This document shows, piece after piece, positions 608 to 64,000 of a stretch of DNA of 64,000 nt. Made by a program: the position numbers and the translations under genes. Origin of the DNA: Escherichia coli. Lineage in GTDB: Bacteria > Pseudomonadota > Gammaproteobacteria > Enterobacterales > Enterobacteriaceae. The stretch lies in the NCBI RefSeq assembly GCF_016903815.1, contig NZ_CP069973.1. One strand, 5' to 3'. The notes beneath the pieces were generated by a model. That model worked only from the letters and a program-made list of their open reading frames with translations. It did not search any database and had not been told where the DNA came from. Positions within the stretch are counted from its first letter, which is position 1. Every line of letters begins with the position of its first letter.

Positions 608-625
608 TTGGTGACAAAACTCACA
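608..625. promoter_or_regulatory. CRP-like site (GTGA-N6-TCACA) in the nagB-nagE divergent promoter region
   Basis: Sequence ttggtgacaaaactcaca read directly; close to the TGTGA-N6-TCACA consensus; the nag divergent region is known to be CRP/NagC controlled. Confidence 0.45.
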
Positions 626-47105: not shown

Positions 47106-47813
47106 TTAAGGTCTCCTTAGCGCCTTATTGCGTAAGACTGCCGGAACTTAAATTTGCCTTCGCACATCAACCTGGCTTTACCCGTTTGTTATTTGGCTCG
47201 CCGCTCTGTGAAAGAGGGGAAAACCTGGGTACAGAGCTCTGGGCGCTTGCAGGTAAAGGATCCATTGATGACGAATAAATGGCGAATCAAGTACTTAGCA
47301 ATCCGAATTATTAAACTTGTCTACCACTAATAACTGTCCCGAATGAATTGGTCAATACTTCCACACTGTTACATAAGTTAATCTTAGGTGAAATACCGAC
47401 TTCATAACTTTTACGCATTATATGCTTTTCCTGGTAATGTTTGTAACAACTTTGTTGAATGATTGTCAAATTAGATGATTAAAAATTAAATAAATGTTGT
47501 TATCGTGACCTGGATCACTGTTCAGGATAAAACCCGACAAACTATATGTAGGTTAATTGTAATGATTTTGTGAACGGCCTATACTGCCGCCAGGTCTCCG
47601 GAACACCCTGCAATCCCGAGCCACCCAGCGTTGTAACGTGTCGTTTTCGCATCTGGAAGCAGTGTTTTGCATGACGCGCAGTTATAGAAAGGACGCTGTC
47701 TGACCCGCAAGCAGACCGGAGGAAGGAAATCCCGACGTCTCCAGGTAACAGAAAGTTAACCTCTGTGCCCGTAGTCCCCAGGGAATAATAAGAACAGCAT
47801 GTGGGCGTTATTC
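47106..47813. promoter_or_regulatory. gltA-sdhC divergent control region including the long sdhC 5' leader
   Basis: 708 bp AT-rich spacer between divergent TCA-cycle genes; in E. coli this region carries the gltA and sdhC promoters with ArcA/CRP/Fnr sites and the small-RNA-targeted sdhC leader. Confidence 0.6.
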
Positions 47814-56535: not shown

Positions 56536-57404
56536 TGTCCATTTTAATTGATAAAAACACCAAGGTTATCTGCCAGGGCTTTACCGGTAGCCAGGGGACT
56601 TTCCACTCAGAACAGGCCATTGCATACGGCACTAAAATGGTTGGCGGCGTAACCCCAGGTAAAGGCGGCACCACCCACCTCGGCCTGCCGGTGTTCAACA
56701 CCGTGCGTGAAGCTGTTGCTGCTACTGGCGCTACCGCTTCTGTTATCTACGTACCAGCACCGTTCTGCAAAGACTCCATTCTGGAAGCCATCGATGCAGG
56801 CATCAAACTGATTATCACCATCACTGAAGGCATCCCGACGCTGGATATGCTGACTGTGAAAGTGAAACTGGACGAAGCTGGCGTTCGTATGATCGGCCCG
56901 AACTGCCCAGGCGTTATCACTCCGGGTGAATGCAAAATCGGTATCCAGCCTGGTCACATTCACAAACCGGGTAAAGTGGGTATCGTTTCCCGTTCCGGTA
57001 CACTGACCTATGAAGCGGTTAAACAGACCACGGATTACGGTTTCGGTCAGTCGACCTGTGTTGGTATCGGCGGCGATCCGATCCCTGGCTCTAACTTTAT
57101 CGACATTCTCGAAATGTTCGAAAAAGATCCGCAGACCGAAGCGATCGTGATGATCGGTGAGATCGGCGGTAGCGCTGAAGAAGAAGCGGCTGCGTACATC
57201 AAAGAGCACGTTACCAAGCCAGTTGTAGGTTACATCGCTGGTGTGACTGCGCCGAAAGGCAAACGTATGGGCCACGCAGGTGCCATCATTGCCGGTGGTA
57301 AAGGGACTGCGGATGAGAAATTCGCTGCTCTGGAAGCCGCAGGCGTGAAAACCGTTCGCAGCCTGGCGGATATCGGTGAAGCACTGAAAACTGTTCTGAA
57401 ATAA
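56535..57404 (+). CDS. sucD: succinyl-CoA synthetase alpha subunit
   Basis: 289 aa; ATG overlaps the sucC stop (TAATG). Confidence 0.95.
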
Positions 57405-57504
57405 ATATCTGTAATAAGAAATAGCCCTCGCCGCTTCCCTCTACAGGAATGGCGAAGGGCTGTCGGTTTCGACATGGTTGGCCATCGTATGATGGCCTTT
57501 TTTA
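57405..57504 (+). ncRNA. sdhX: SdhX (RybD) small RNA derived from the sucD 3' UTR
   Basis: About 100 nt from the sucD stop to an intrinsic terminator (ggccatcgtatgatggcc plus T-run); position matches the known 3'-UTR sRNA of the sdh-suc operon. Exact ends not determinable from sequence. Confidence 0.6.
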
Positions 57505-57507
57505 TGC

Positions 57508-58230
57508 TTATCGCGATGATTTTCGCTGCGCTATCAGGGTAAATTTATAGTCATCAGTATTAAAAGCGTTGCGGCTATATTCAAACACCCGGCCATCAAC
57601 TAAATATCCACGCGATACTTTTTCAAGAATCGGCTTAGACTGGCTGATATTAAGCAGACGGCTCATCTCTTCGGTTGGCATCAGAGGAATGATTTCCTGT
57701 TCGCTACGATCGATAACCATTTTCTTCACTTCTTCAATAAAGTGATATTTCGAATTTTCCATAACCTGCCAGGTGAGATCCGGGAACAACGCAAGCGGCA
57801 TCCAGGTTTCTTCCAGCGCCATTGGCTTTTGCTTGCGATAGCGCACGCGCTTCACATGCCACACACGATCCTGCGCGATGATTTGTAGCTGTTGCTGAAG
57901 AAAATCGTCAGCCGGAATCACTTCAAATATCAGAACTTCACTGTGTGTATCGACGTGACGGTCCGACAGTTTTTCATCAAAACTGGTTAACTGAAAAATA
58001 TCGTAATTGACCCGCTCTTCTTTGACGTAAGTCCCGCTGCCCTGAATGCTTTCGAGGATCTGTTGCTCGACTAGCTGGCGCAAAGCCTGACGCACCGTAA
58101 CCCGGCTGACGCCAAACTTTGTTTGCAATGCCGATTCGGTAGGTAACGCATCGCCAGGTTTTAGCTCGCCACGCGCAATTTGCTCACGAATGCGATCGGC
58201 AATCTGTCGATATAAGGGTTTCCGTCCCAT
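57508..58230 (-). CDS. mngR: GntR/HutC-family transcriptional repressor MngR (FarR)
   Basis: 240 aa; N-terminal winged helix-turn-helix (VSRVTVRQAL) and UTRA effector domain. Confidence 0.9.
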   Translation of the reverse strand: MGRKPLYRQIADRIREQIARGELKPGDALPTESALQTKFGVSRVTVRQALRQLVEQQILESIQGSGTYVKEERVNYDIFQLTSFDEKLSDRHVDTHSEVLIFEVIPADDFLQQQLQIIAQDRVWHVKRVRYRKQKPMALEETWMPLALFPDLTWQVMENSKYHFIEEVKKMVIDRSEQEIIPLMPTEEMSRLLNISQSKPILEKVSRGYLVDGRVFEYSRNAFNTDDYKFTLIAQRKSSR

Positions 58231-58345
58231 TATTTAGCATCTCATTAATACGAATTTAGCCATTATGCACGATAAATTCATCCTGTAAATAATACAAATA
58301 CAATACAAATAATTTCAATCAAGTGAAATTGATCACATAATAGTA

Positions 58346-60316
58346 TTGTTTTATCGGGCACACTGGCGCGACTATAAAAACGATCAAGTGAGGATCATGA
58401 TGAACCTGACGACTCTGACCCACCGCGATGCGTTGTGTCTGAATGCGCGCTTTACCAGCCGTGAAGAGGCCATCCACGCGTTGACTCAACGTCTTGCTGC
58501 TCTGGGGAAAATTTCCAGTACTGAGCAATTTCTGGAAGAAGTGTATCGCCGTGAAAGCCTTGGCCCGACCGCCTTAGGTGAAGGGTTGGCTGTGCCGCAT
58601 GGTAAAACTGCTGCGGTAAAAGAAGCAGCGTTTGCCGTTGCGACACTGAGTGAGCCGCTTCAGTGGGAAGGCGTGGATGGCCCGGAAGCGGTTGATTTAG
58701 TGGTGTTGCTGGCGATTCCCCCCAATGAAGCGGGTACTACGCACATGCAACTGCTGACAGCGCTGACCACGCGCCTGGCGGATGATGAGATACGGGCGCG
58801 TATACAGTCGGCGACGACGCCTGATGAATTGCTTTCGGCGCTGGATGACAAGGGAGGCACGCAACCCTCAGCTTCTTTTTCCAACGCGCCAACTATCGTC
58901 TGCGTAACGGCCTGCCCGGCGGGTATTGCTCACACCTATATGGCTGCGGAATATCTGGAAAAAGCCGGACGCAAACTCGGCGTGAATGTCTACGTTGAAA
59001 AACAAGGCGCTAACGGTATTGAAGGGCGTTTAACGGCAGAGCAACTCAATAGTGCAACCGCCTGTATTTTTGCGGCTGAAGTCGCCATCAAGGAGAGTGA
59101 GCGTTTTAACGGCATTCCCGCGCTTTCAGTGCCTGTTGCCGAGCCGATTCGCCATGCTGAAGCGTTGATCCAACAAGCACTGACCCTCGAGCGTAGCGGT
59201 GAGACGCGTACCGTACAGCAAGATACGCAACCGGCGAAAAGCGTCAAAACGGAGCTGAAACAGGCGCTGTTAAGCGGGATCTCTTTCGCCGTGCCGTTGA
59301 TTGTCGCGGGGGGTACGGTGCTGGCGGTTGCGGTATTACTGTCGCAAATCTTCGGGCTACAAGATCTATTTAATGAAGAAAACTCCTGGTTGTGGATGTA
59401 CCGCAAACTGGGCGGCGGGATGCTCGGGATTTTGATGGTGCCGGTGCTGGCAGCCTATACCGCCTATTCGCTGGCAGATAAACCGGCGTTAGCGCCGGGC
59501 TTTGCGGCTGGACTTGCCGCCAACATGATCGGTTCCGGGTTTCTCGGCGCGGTCGTTGGCGGATTGATAGCCGGTTATCTGATGCGCTGGGTGAAAAATC
59601 ACTTACGTCTTAGCAGTAAATTCAATGGATTCCTGACTTTTTATCTCTACCCGGTGCTCGGTACGTTGGGAGCGGGCAGTCTGATGCTGTTTGTGGTGGG
59701 GGAACCTGTCGCCTGGATCAATAACTCGCTTACCGCCTGGCTGAACGGTCTGTCAGGAAGTAACGCGCTGTTGCTGGGTGCCATTCTCGGTTTTATGTGT
59801 TCCTTTGACCTTGGAGGGCCAGTGAACAAAGCCGCTTATGCATTCTGCCTGGGCGCAATGGCGAACGGCGTTTACGGCCCGTATGCCATTTTCGCCTCCG
59901 TCAAAATGGTTTCGGCATTTACCGTAACCGCTTCCACGATGCTCGCACCGCGCCTGTTTAAAGAGTTTGAAATTGAGACCGGGAAATCCACCTGGCTGTT
60001 AGGGCTGGCAGGTATTACCGAAGGGGCGATCCCGATGGCGATTGAAGATCCGCTGCGGGTTATTGGTTCGTTTGTGCTGGGCTCTATGGTAACGGGCGCT
60101 ATTGTCGGCGCGATGAATATCGGCCTTTCGACACCCGGTGCCGGCATTTTCTCGCTCTTTTTACTTCATGATAATGGCGCGGGCGGTGTTATGGCGGCAA
60201 TTGGCTGGTTTGGTGCGGCATTGGTGGGGGCTGCAATCTCGACTGCAATTCTCCTGATCTGGCGGCGTCACGCGGTTAAGCATGGCAACTATCTGACTGA
60301 TGGCGTAATGCCATAA
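58346..60316 (+). CDS. mngA: PTS 2-O-alpha-mannosyl-D-glycerate-specific EIIABC component
   Basis: About 650 aa with EIIA, EIIB ([15 protein letters not shown]) and EIIC domains; alternative in-frame ATGs at 58397 and 58400 follow a GAGGA motif, so the start is uncertain. Confidence 0.85.
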
Positions 60317-60333: not shown

Positions 60334-62967
60334 ATGAAAGCGGTATCTCGCGTTCACATCACCCCGCATATGCACTGGGATCGGGAGTGGTATTTCACCA
60401 CCGAAGAGTCACGCATTCTGCTGGTCAATAATATGGAAGAGATCCTGCGCCGACTGGAACAGGACAACGAATACAAATATTACGTACTCGACGGGCAAAC
60501 GGCGATCCTCGAAGATTATTTCGCGGTGAAACCGGAAAACAAAGAGCGCGTGAAGAAACTGGTAGAAGCCGGTAAGTTGATTATCGGCCCCTGGTATACC
60601 CAGACCGATACCACGATTGTTTCTGCGGAATCCATCGTCCGTAATCTGATGTACGGAATGCGTGACTGCCTCGCGTTTGGCGAGCCGATGAAAATAGGTT
60701 ATTTACCAGATTCCTTTGGCATGTCCGGGCAACTGCCGCATATTTACAATGGATTTGGCATTACCCGCACCATGTTCTGGCGCGGATGTTCTGAGCGCCA
60801 CGGTACTGATAAAACCGAGTTTTTGTGGCAAAGCAGTGATGGTAGCGAAGTGACGGCGCAGGTGCTGCCGCTGGGCTACGCCATCGGTAAGTACTTACCT
60901 GCCGACGAAGACGGATTACGCAAACGTCTCGACAGTTATTTTGACGTGCTGGAAAAAGCGTCAGTAACCAAAGAAATTTTATTGCCGAATGGTCATGATC
61001 AGATGCCATTGCAGCAAAATATCTTCGAAGTGATGGAGAAACTTCGCGAAATTTATCCTCAACGAAAGTTTGTGATGAGCCGCTTTGAAGAGGTATTCGA
61101 GCAGATTGAAGCGCAGCGAGATAATCTGGCGACCCTCAAAGGTGAATTTATCGATGGCAAATATATGCGCGTGCATCGCACCATCGGTTCCACGCGCATG
61201 GATATCAAAATTGCCCACGCGCGTATTGAAAATAAGATTGTTAATCTGCTGGAACCGCTGGCAACACTGGCCTGGACTTTAGGTTTTGAATACCACCACG
61301 GCTTGCTGGAGAAAATGTGGAAAGAGATCTTAAAAAATCATGCCCACGACAGTATCGGTTGTTGTTGCAGTGACAAAGTTCATCGCGAAATCGTCGCCCG
61401 CTTCGAACTGGCTGAAGACATGGCGGATAATCTGATTCGTTTCTACATGCGCAAAATTGCCGATAACATGCCACAGAGTGATGCCGACAAACTTGTGCTG
61501 TTTAACCTGATGCCCTGGCCGCGGGAAGAAGTGATCAACACCACTGTGCGGCTGCGCGCTAGCCAGTTTAATTTGCGGGACGATCGCGGTCAGCCTGTAC
61601 CGTATTTTATTCGCCATGCCCGTGAGATCGATCCTGGCCTAATCGATCGGCAAATCGTTCATTACGGTAATTACGATCCCTTTATGGAGTTTGATATTCA
61701 GATCAACCAGATTGTCCCTTCTATGGGCTATCGCACGCTTTATATCGAAACGAATCAGCCTGGCAACGTGATTGCGGCAAAAAGTGACGCTGAAGGGATA
61801 CTGGAAAATGCTTTCTGGCAAATTGCGCTCAATGAGGATGGAACGCTACAACTGGTAGATAAAGACAGCGGTGTGCGCTATGACCGGGTATTGCAAATTG
61901 AAGAAAGCTCTGATGATGGTGATGAATATGACTATTCACCTGCAAAAGAAGAGTGGGTAATTACTTCGGCGAATGCGAAACCGCAATGCGAGATTATTCA
62001 TGAGGCCTGGCAGAGCAGGGCTGTTATCCGCTATGACATGGCGGTGCCGCGTAATCTACAAGAACGCAGCGCACGGCAATGCACGGGTAGAGTAGGGGTG
62101 GAGTTGGTTGTCACTCTGAGTGATAACAGCAGGCGCATTGATGTGGTTATCAACCTTGATAACCAGGCTGACGATCATCGCCTTCGCGTCCTGGTCCCTA
62201 CACCTTTCAACACCGACAATGTTCTGGCCGATACCCAGTTTGGTTCGCTAACGCGCCCGGTGAGCGACAGTGCGATGGATGTCTGGCAACAAGAAGGCTG
62301 GAAAGAAGCGCCTGTTCCGGTGTGGAATATGCTCAACTATGCTGCCTTACAGGAAGGGCGTAACGGTCTGGCTGTCTTTAGCGAAGGGCTACGTGAATTC
62401 GAAGTCATCGGTGAAGAGAAGAAAACCTTTGCCATTACGTTGCTGCGTGGCGTGGGCTTACTGGGGAAAGAAGATCTGCTTTTAAGGCCTGGACGTCCTT
62501 CGGGTATAAAAATGCCGGTGCCCGATTCACAATTACGTGGCTCCTTTAGCTGCCGTCTGAGCTTATTTAGTTATACAGGTACGCCTTCGACCGCCGGTGT
62601 AGCCCAGCAGGCGCGTGCATGGCTGACGCCAGTACAGTGTTACAACAAAATCCCGTGGGATGCGATGAAGTTAAATAAAGCCGGATTCAATGTGCCGGAA
62701 AGCTATAGCTTGCTGAAAATGCCCCCTGTGGGATGCCTGATTAGCGCTCTTAAAAAAGCGGAAGACCGGCAAGAAGTGGTATTGCGACTGTTTAATCCGG
62801 CAGAATCGACAACCTGTGAGGCAACTGTCGCGTTCAGTCGTGAGGTGATTTCATGTACGCAAACGATGATGGATGAAAGCATCAGCACAGCGGAAAGAGA
62901 TAATTTAAAGGAACTGGGGGCATTTTTACCGGGGCAGTCACGGACATTTAGCTACCGCCTTGGCTGA
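60334..62967 (+). CDS. mngB: alpha-mannosidase (mannosylglycerate hydrolase, GH38)
   Basis: 877 aa; recognised as MngB. Confidence 0.95.
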
Positions 62968-63111: not shown

Positions 63112-64000
63112 TTACCCCTTAAACGTTAACCACGGTCGAAATCTGACCGCTGGCTGAATTAATCCGGCTTCTTGTTGGGCTTCGATAACCGGACCAATAT
63201 CTTTATAAGCCGCTGGCGCTTCTTCAAGACGTCGTTCTTCACGCAATGTGACGCATTGCCACGGCAGCGTTGACTCTTCAGTCGCGCTTGAGCGCATGGC
63301 CTGTCGACGCTGGCTGCGTCCTGCTCCGTGACTGCATGACCACAGCCACTCCGGGTTGCCGCAACCGACTGCAAGCCACGAATAATCGCCCATTGAACCG
63401 GGGATTAATGCCAGATCGCCCACTCGTGCCGGTGTTGCACCTTTGCGATGAATATTCATTTCATGCTCGCGAAGGATGATGTTATGTGGTACATCCACCA
63501 CCAGATGCGAATTGTCCTGATGAAAGAGATTGGCGAGACATACGCGCACCATTTCGGCAATTGTGACGCGATTTAACCACGCGTAACGCGCCGCCATTCC
63601 TATCGCTTGTAGATATTCCTCCGCCAGTCCGCCTGCCAGACCATATAACCCGCTTTGTGGATGTTTATGTCCGGTGGGCCATTCAGCACGGGCGCGATCC
63701 ATCCAGCGTCTTCCGACGTAAAAGCCAACATCTCGCGATCCACTGTGGATCATCACCACAATATCGCCTGTTTTCAGCCCTTGTTGCCAGGCTACATGGC
63801 GATCAACCACGCTATCAACGACCTGAAGTTCAATAAAATGATTACCTGAACCCGGCGTACCCAGACAAGGATCGCGGAGTAATGCGCGGTCCGTTGCCAG
63901 CAGGGCGGGTGGGGCATAACGCGAATGACTGTTATGCTCGTTAAGCCCAATGCAGCGGTCAATCTCTTGTACCATTCGGGGGATATTCGTGCGTGTCCAG
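63112..64000 (-). CDS. RtcB-family RNA ligase paralogue, C-terminal part; the N-terminus lies beyond the window end
   Basis: Translation contains RtcB signatures GSGNHF, HSGSR, IPGSMG and CSHGAGR and ends ...RPWLTFKG, parallel to canonical E. coli RtcB as I recall it; the minus-strand frame is open to the window edge. Confidence 0.75.
   Translation of the reverse strand, partial: WTRTNIPRMVQEIDRCIGLNEHNSHSRYAPPALLATDRALLRDPCLGTPGSGNHFIELQVVDSVVDRHVAWQQGLKTGDIVVMIHSGSRDVGFYVGRRWMDRARAEWPTGHKHPQSGLYGLAGGLAEEYLQAIGMAARYAWLNRVTIAEMVRVCLANLFHQDNSHLVVDVPHNIILREHEMNIHRKGATPARVGDLALIPGSMGDYSWLAVGCGNPEWLWSCSHGAGRSQRRQAMRSSATEESTLPWQCVTLREERRLEEAPAAYKDIGPVIEAQQEAGLIQPAVRFRPWLTFKG

Follow-up and report, generated by a model that had tools for sequence, protein, structure and literature searches.

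In Escherichia coli the genes mngR and mngA diverge from a 166-bp spacer in which tandem ATACAA repeats stand beside a GTGA...TCAC motif with inverted ends, and in which the reading frame of mngA is open well upstream of two adjacent ATG codons. The question raised by this locus is which of the two motifs serves as the operator of the MngR repressor, what the other one does, and at which codon the translation of mngA begins. All positions given below are those of the window, i.e. the whole stretch of 64,000 nucleotides (64 kb) that was analysed.

The mngR-mngA locus and its distribution

The spacer (58231-58396) begins at 58231, the complement of the mngR start codon being 58228-58230. According to RefSeq the gene order is sucCD, mngR (minus strand, 57508-58230), mngA, mngB and an RtcB-family gene. 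Pfam profiles assign GntR and UTRA domains to the regulator (HutC-type) and identify the transporter as an EIIA_2/IIB/EIIC PTS permease. Annotation and domain composition thus bear out the divergent mngR-mngA regulatory region that had been proposed in an earlier, sequence-only reading of this DNA, and everything that this reading had said about the letters themselves (repeats, GTGA...TCAC, GAGGA, ATG codons and open frame) was found in place. The region 58231-58396 is an already studied control region that serves mngR in one direction and mngAB, the operon for mannosylglycerate uptake, in the other. The MngR regulon was reportedly defined by Sampaio et al. in 2004 (J Biol Chem 279:5537).

57508-58230, minus strand: coding sequence of mngR (farR), a GntR/HutC-family repressor (open reading frame, RefSeq annotation, Pfam GntR and UTRA)

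A 366-bp query (58131-58496) matches E. coli strain 7/2, in which mngR and mngA are annotated on both sides of the spacer, at 100% identity and K-12 at about 96%; a few substitutions and a single 1-nt indel set the K-12 spacer apart. When the same segment was compared with 5426 complete E. coli genomes, the spacer was found in 3867 of them. It is unusually polymorphic within the species, with identity bands at ~96% and ~91%, and a pangenome paper reports that mngRAB is missing from B2 sequence types except ST131. For comparison outside E. coli we used 38 mngR-mngA loci from other Enterobacterales, from Citrobacter to Edwardsiella, with MngR identities of 63-84%; the divergent arrangement is present in 38/38 of these related loci. 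Conservation counts given below refer to 41 spacer sequences.

In E. coli 1217KP (locus L004) about 160 bp equivalent to window positions ~58210-58368 are deleted, which takes away the first mngR codons and, of the elements described below, every operator copy, the CRP-like site and the predicted mngA -10 hexamer. The mngB gene of this strain has an internal stop, and its mng system appears to be decaying. Downstream of mngB the window carries the RtcB-family gene (63112-63975, minus strand) at a place where K-12 continues to cydA. On the other side of the locus, the sucD 3' UTR (57406-57506) is the counterpart of the sRNA gene sdhX annotated in MG1655 and contains, at 57480-57497, a hairpin that resembles a terminator; when 57300-58500, a segment that includes this sdhX-equivalent region, was scanned with Rfam, no match was obtained.

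The ATACAA repeats as the MngR operator

FarR (= MngR) is described as an exception among HutC regulators in that it binds direct repeats of the form TGTATTAWTT. Its primary site is said to cover 21 bp and to contain two imperfect repeats of 10 bp each, and the repeats were implicated by footprinting in 1994 (Quail, Dempsey & Guest, FEBS Lett 356:183, in the form in which that work is quoted in PMC4494728 and bioRxiv 10.1101/2025.08.21.671446). The tract aaatacaaatacaatacaaataa (58289-58311), in which the sequence-only reading saw short tandem repeats next to a possible operator, is the reverse complement of this published site. Because the minus strand of 58287-58307 matches two TGTATTAWTT repeats in 21 bp, we identify the ATACAA repeats, judged by their sequence, as the published FarR/MngR operator. 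The repeats are indeed present and non-random, but their role is that of the operator itself and not that of its mere neighbour.

58287-58307, minus strand: primary MngR/FarR operator, TGTATTGTAT-T-TGTATTATTT, two 10-bp TGTATTAWTT repeats in 21 bp (consensus match, conservation)

The repeat at 58287-58296 matches the consensus at 10/10 positions and is the sole perfect TGTATTAWTT in the 64-kb window; the other (58298-58307), separated from it by 1 nt, matches at 8/10. Conserved 9-mers AATACAAAT are located at 58291-58299 and 58302-58310, with scores of 17.7 and 18.8 bits. The arrangement AATACAAAT-nn-AATACAAAT is kept in all 38 other Enterobacterales loci, each of the 41 spacers has exactly two copies with an 11-bp period, and TRF reports period 11, 1.9 copies and 100% match. 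This suggests ATTTGTATT, a 9-mer recurring every 11 bp, as the conserved operator unit, and we take the biological unit to be a repeat of 9-10 bp, with the same period, in two copies. The impression of a triple ATACAA stems from the dinucleotide AC between the copies, which is limited to E. coli and a small number of other lineages. Counted on both strands, the exact 9-mer AATACAAAT has three occurrences in the window, of which two are those in the operator, 11 bp apart; the third lies inside mngB (60470-60478) and is probably due to chance.

TRF also offers a period-6 reading with 3.7 copies, as would befit a slippage-prone simple-sequence tract that switches expression through its varying copy number. 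Such a tract is extremely unlikely, however, in view of the invariant pair of 9-mers at 11-bp period in all spacers and of the copy number, which is constant among the aligned E. coli sequences. The repeats need no new explanation; the regulatory region is already known.

Promoters and leader of mngR

58289-58318, minus strand: mngR promoter P1, -35 TTGAAA (58318-58313), 18-nt spacer, -10 TATTAT (58294-58289) (promoter scan, Shimada 2014)
58234-58281, minus strand: 15-codon uORF at the 5' end of the mngR mRNA, ATG 58281-58279, TAA 58236-58234 (PMC4965119 and sequence)
58262-58289, minus strand: candidate second mngR promoter, -35 TTTACA (58289-58284), 16 nt, -10 CATAAT (58267-58262) (scan, conservation)

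The hexamer pair TTGAAA/TATTAT found for P1 is the same as that given for mngR by Shimada 2014. In K-12 the 5' end of the mngR mRNA lies 1 nt before an AUG, and the 15-codon uORF has its stop 2 nt before the mngR ATG (PMC4965119). Since this geometry puts the AUG at 58281-58279, the mngR transcription start site (TSS) would be 58282. With respect to this start the operator spans -25 to -5 of the mngR promoter, a position that implies autorepression by occlusion. The uORF is translated and lowers mngR expression (PMC4965119); its conservation is absent in other genera.

The TTTACA and CATAAT hexamers of the candidate second promoter are both conserved across genera, and the pair may constitute another mngR promoter. 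As the main mngR promoter it was demoted, given that the published 5' uAUG geometry puts the TSS at 58282.

The GTGA-N6-TCAC palindrome as a predicted CRP site

58319-58340, no strand assigned: CRP-like site TCAAGTGAAATTGATCACATAA, core AGTGA-N6-TCACA, centre 58329.5, containing GTGA...TCAC (consensus match, conservation)

The GTGA...TCAC motif, gtgaaattgatcac at 58323-58336, had been regarded as a possible GntR-type operator. Its extended core, AGTGA-AATTGA-TCACA, agrees with the CRP consensus TGTGA-N6-TCACA at 9/10 positions. The right half TGATCACA is almost invariant across genera and the left half drifts (GTGA, GAGA, GCGA, TTGA). GTGA-N6-TCAC has five occurrences in the window versus 0.79 expected per 64 kb, and the expectation for the 166-bp spacer is ~0.002. 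On these grounds GTGAAATTGATCAC is most likely a cAMP-CRP site. What counts against CRP is the conservation of the motif's interior (GAAAnTGATC), which exceeds that commonly found in the spacer of a CRP site. The mngR/mngA spacer is absent from the CRP genomic-SELEX paper (Shimada 2011) and its supplements as well as from the CRP ChIP-exo supplements of Latif 2018, the supplementary files being possibly incomplete in both cases.

The assignment can also be reversed, with MngR binding GTGAAATTGATCAC as a GntR-type operator and the ATACAA repeats being incidental AT-rich simple sequence: symmetry of the GT...AC kind is frequent in GntR-family operators (PMC4494728), and 38/38 loci show strong conservation of the motif beside mngR. 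The repeats, however, are conserved equally well, and the passages quoted from Quail et al. explicitly except FarR by assigning to it the direct repeats, i.e. the ATACAA region. Moreover, palindromes of the HutC type (NyGTMTAKACNy) have GT and AC 4 nt apart (PMC4494728), whereas in GTGAAATTGATCAC they are 10 nt apart. This reversed assignment is therefore very unlikely; the GntR-type interpretation of the palindrome is not supported, and CRP fits much better.

Several other factors were considered for this part of the spacer and rejected. Sigma-54 was dismissed for CTGGCAC-N5 because its GG is not kept across genera (TGTCAC, TGCCAC, TGCGAC), Cra/FruR for TGAAAnTGATCA because none of the sequences has the central C/G diagnostic of Cra sites, and FNR for TTGAT because its first T is variable and the right half fails to match. 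A CRP site serving the mngR promoter was discarded as well, its centre being at -47.5 from TSS 58282, which is not canonical.

Two GATC (Dam) sites were noted, one inside the CRP-like palindrome (58331-58334) and conserved as part of TGATCAC in 41/41 spacers, the other in the mngA leader (58381-58384). Two of the other four GTGA-N6-TCAC matches in the window (611-624 and 47505-47518) fall into the nagB/nagE and gltA/sdhC intergenic regions, which we take to be classic CRP-controlled regions.

The predicted mngA promoter

58359-58364, plus strand: predicted mngA -10 hexamer CACACT (fixed offset from the CRP-like site, conservation)

Downstream of the CRP-like site, and separated from it by a stretch free of indels in 41/41 spacers, lies a -10-like hexamer that keeps A at position 2 and T at position 6 in 41/41 spacers and is preceded, one nucleotide upstream, by TG in 31/41. 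In most genera the hexamer is CACAAT, which gives the extended -10 signature TGnCACAAT; in the E. coli window GG stands in place of the TG and the hexamer is CACACT, which is weak. Placing 58359-58364 at -12 to -7 puts the TSS at ~58371 and the palindrome centre (58329.5) at exactly -41.5. From this geometry we infer a class II mngA promoter of the extended -10 type with its TSS at ~58371. The leader downstream of the predicted TSS varies between 27 and 59 nt across the spacers, and the upstream block stays rigid. A measured mngA TSS was not found in the Cappable-seq or Kim 2012 supplements.

E. coli also has a better-looking hexamer, TATAAA at 58373-58378, which matches the consensus at 5/6 positions and has TTTATC 17 bp upstream. 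It would place the mngA TSS at ~58385 and the CRP-like centre near -55.5, and the palindrome might then bind another factor, act from a non-canonical position or be a repressor site. The same would apply to a start far upstream, for which Shimada 2014 gives a different mngA hexamer pair (TTAATA-19-GATAAA) together with an H-NS mark on the spacer. Published work further reports that SlyA overproduction raises mngAB 3.4-fold, and Shimada 2011 and the supplements of Latif 2018 furnished no data on CRP binding for this spacer. Nevertheless, TATAAA is specific to E. coli, its position and sequence drifting in other genera, and the Shimada hexamers, which would have to be 19 nt apart, fall where the intergenic sequence is conserved least. 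The CACAAT-type hexamer is the only one in which A2 and T6 are kept throughout at a fixed distance from the palindrome. We regard the alternative promoters as unlikely and retain the class II promoter with CACACT as its predicted -10.

In 12 other genera (loci L009, L010, L023, L025, L027, L028, L032, L034, L035, L036, L040 and L041) a predicted mngA leader of 40-59 nt forms a stable hairpin (-9 to -18 kcal/mol), sometimes followed by a T-run; the predicted E. coli leader has 29 nt and is unstructured. These predicted hairpins may represent an extra regulatory layer outside Escherichia.

Further operator-like copies

58243-58252, minus strand: weaker operator-like copy CGTATTAATG (8/10) in the mngR leader, 44 bp from the first repeat (consensus match, 12.5 bits)
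58342-58351, plus strand: inverted operator-like copy AGTATTGTTT (8/10) (consensus match, positional conservation)

Comparison of the spacers suggests two further weak copies of the operator. The score of the copy in the mngR leader corresponds to about the 95th percentile of shuffles, and its TAATAC core is conserved. The inverted copy is flanked by the CRP-like site and the -10 hexamer and would occupy -29 to -20 relative to the predicted mngA TSS. It scores just 7 bits in the window strain, and the case for it is its positional conservation: at least 15 species have it at an identical offset, its GTATT core is nearly invariant, and in Citrobacter it reads TGTATTATTT. In a synthetic-promoter survey MngR was among the strongest repressors and repressed from +1, -53 and -103, a pattern compatible with MngR acting from both distal and proximal sites.

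The translation start of mngA

58390-58394, plus strand: Shine-Dalgarno sequence GAGGA of mngA (sequence, conservation)
58397-58399, plus strand: first ATG, 3 nt after GAGG
58400-60316, plus strand: mngA coding sequence from the most likely start, 638 aa (PGAP, conservation, Pfam)
58340-58348, plus strand: ATA GTA TTG, in which ATA takes the place of the K-12 ATG used for the 658-aa annotation and TTG opens a 656-aa open reading frame

The ambiguity of the mngA start, already pointed out from the sequence, is real: PGAP places it at the second ATG (58400, 638 aa) in both the window strain and BW25113, and the MG1655 RefSeq protein has 658 aa, with a start 60 nt upstream that corresponds to window position 58340. 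We could also confirm that the in-frame ATGs at 58397 and 58400 are adjacent and follow GAGGA, and that the frame extends upstream to TTG 58346, from which a 656-aa open reading frame runs; it is open back to the TAA at 58310-58312.

Conservation argues for the second ATG. Position 58400 has ATG in 40/41 spacers, at 5-6 nt from GAGG across the spacers (6 nt in the window), and the EIIA_2 profile starts ~4 residues after this Met, profile position 6 being residue 28 of the 656-aa frame. Position 58397 has ATG in 18/41 spacers and a non-start codon in 15/41, hence it is probably not the main start. In many species the upstream frame is interrupted or has no start codon, and both TTG 58346 and the K-12 long-form ATG lie upstream of the predicted TSS. 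Within E. coli the exact K-12 haplotype with the long-form ATG is found in 2715 genomes and the exact window haplotype, with ATA at 58340, in 106; the 582 genomes of the 90-95% identity band have no in-frame ATG at the equivalent of 58340, as judged from one example (AVS0655).

An alternative start, be it 58397, both ATGs together, or TTG 58346 or the K-12 ATG (with a protein of 656 or 658 aa), could appeal to the location of both ATGs after GAGGA, to the RefSeq annotation of MG1655 and to the large number of genomes with the K-12-type haplotype. However, just 3 nt separate 58397 from GAGG, and a non-start codon often stands in its place. The long extension is unconserved, lies outside the EIIA_2 domain and begins upstream of the predicted TSS; its ATG is ATA in the window, and TTG 58346 has no preceding Shine-Dalgarno sequence. 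As a whole these alternatives appear improbable to us: some use of ATG 58397 is improbable too, and use of a long-form start far more so. By sequence, translation of mngA most probably starts at ATG 58400. Thus, the 658-aa model of MG1655 mngA probably carries 20 spurious N-terminal residues, and there is a case for trimming these 20 codons.

A model of the control region

Combining the conserved sequence matches with the operator consensus and the mngR 5' end known from publications, we derive a joint model with the MngR operator repeats, a CRP site of a class II mngA promoter and a translation start at 58400, which we consider probable. MngR bound at the two direct repeats would cover the -10 and the spacer of the mngR promoter and shut off its own gene. 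Relative to the mngA promoter the same repeats would span about -84 to -64, and MngR could also occupy the inverted weaker copy at -29 to -20 and the other weak copy in the mngR leader, so that its sites would bracket the activator site. Occupancy of the operator would block RNA polymerase until an inducer releases MngR; phosphorylated mannosylglycerate is thought to have this role and probably is the inducer. Bound at -41.5, cAMP-CRP would activate the predicted extended -10 promoter of mngA (CACACT at 58359-58364, TSS ~58371), an input that would tie this PTS operon to catabolite control. Translation would then begin at ATG 58400, 6 nt after GAGG, and the open frame upstream would be untranslated spacer.

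A bolder version, to which we give somewhat less than even credence, is that mngAB is under previously undescribed class II CRP control, with MngR acting as an anti-activator or loop-former that brackets the CRP site, as NagC does at nagE-nagB, in a layout conserved from Escherichia to Edwardsiella. It is probable that mngAB receives an input from CRP which none of the sources searched records. The conserved class II CRP geometry, the bracketing MngR sites and the trimming of the MngA model are possibly new, and the outcome amounts to corrections of a regulatory-database entry and of an annotation rather than to a discovery.

Comparison with known systems

The closest relative of the region is the K-12 FarR/MngR operator at the same locus, which is identical in its 21-bp element, in the TGTATTAWTT consensus and in its position between mngR and mngA; nothing essential differs.

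The predicted mngA promoter resembles class II CRP promoters with an extended -10, of which galP1 is an example, in that the palindrome is centred 41.5 bp upstream of the deduced start, there is no recognisable -35, and most genera show the TGn-hexamer signature. It differs from them in that the role of CRP and the TSS are predictions at mngA, and in that E. coli has GG for TG and a weak hexamer.

The regulator itself shares its GntR + UTRA architecture with the HutC subfamily, whose operators include NyGTMTAKACNy palindromes such as the dre sites of NagR/DasR, but MngR uses direct repeats rather than a palindrome, and GTGA-N6-TCAC does not suit the GT-AC spacing of that subfamily.

In its layout the locus recalls the divergent nagE-nagB region (~450-783 of the same window), in which NagC operators flank a CRP site. 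Both are control regions of divergent sugar-PTS genes with repressor sites on both sides of a CRP-type palindrome. The repressor belongs to the ROK family at nagE-nagB and to the GntR/HutC family at mngR, where looping or anti-activation by MngR is a conjecture.
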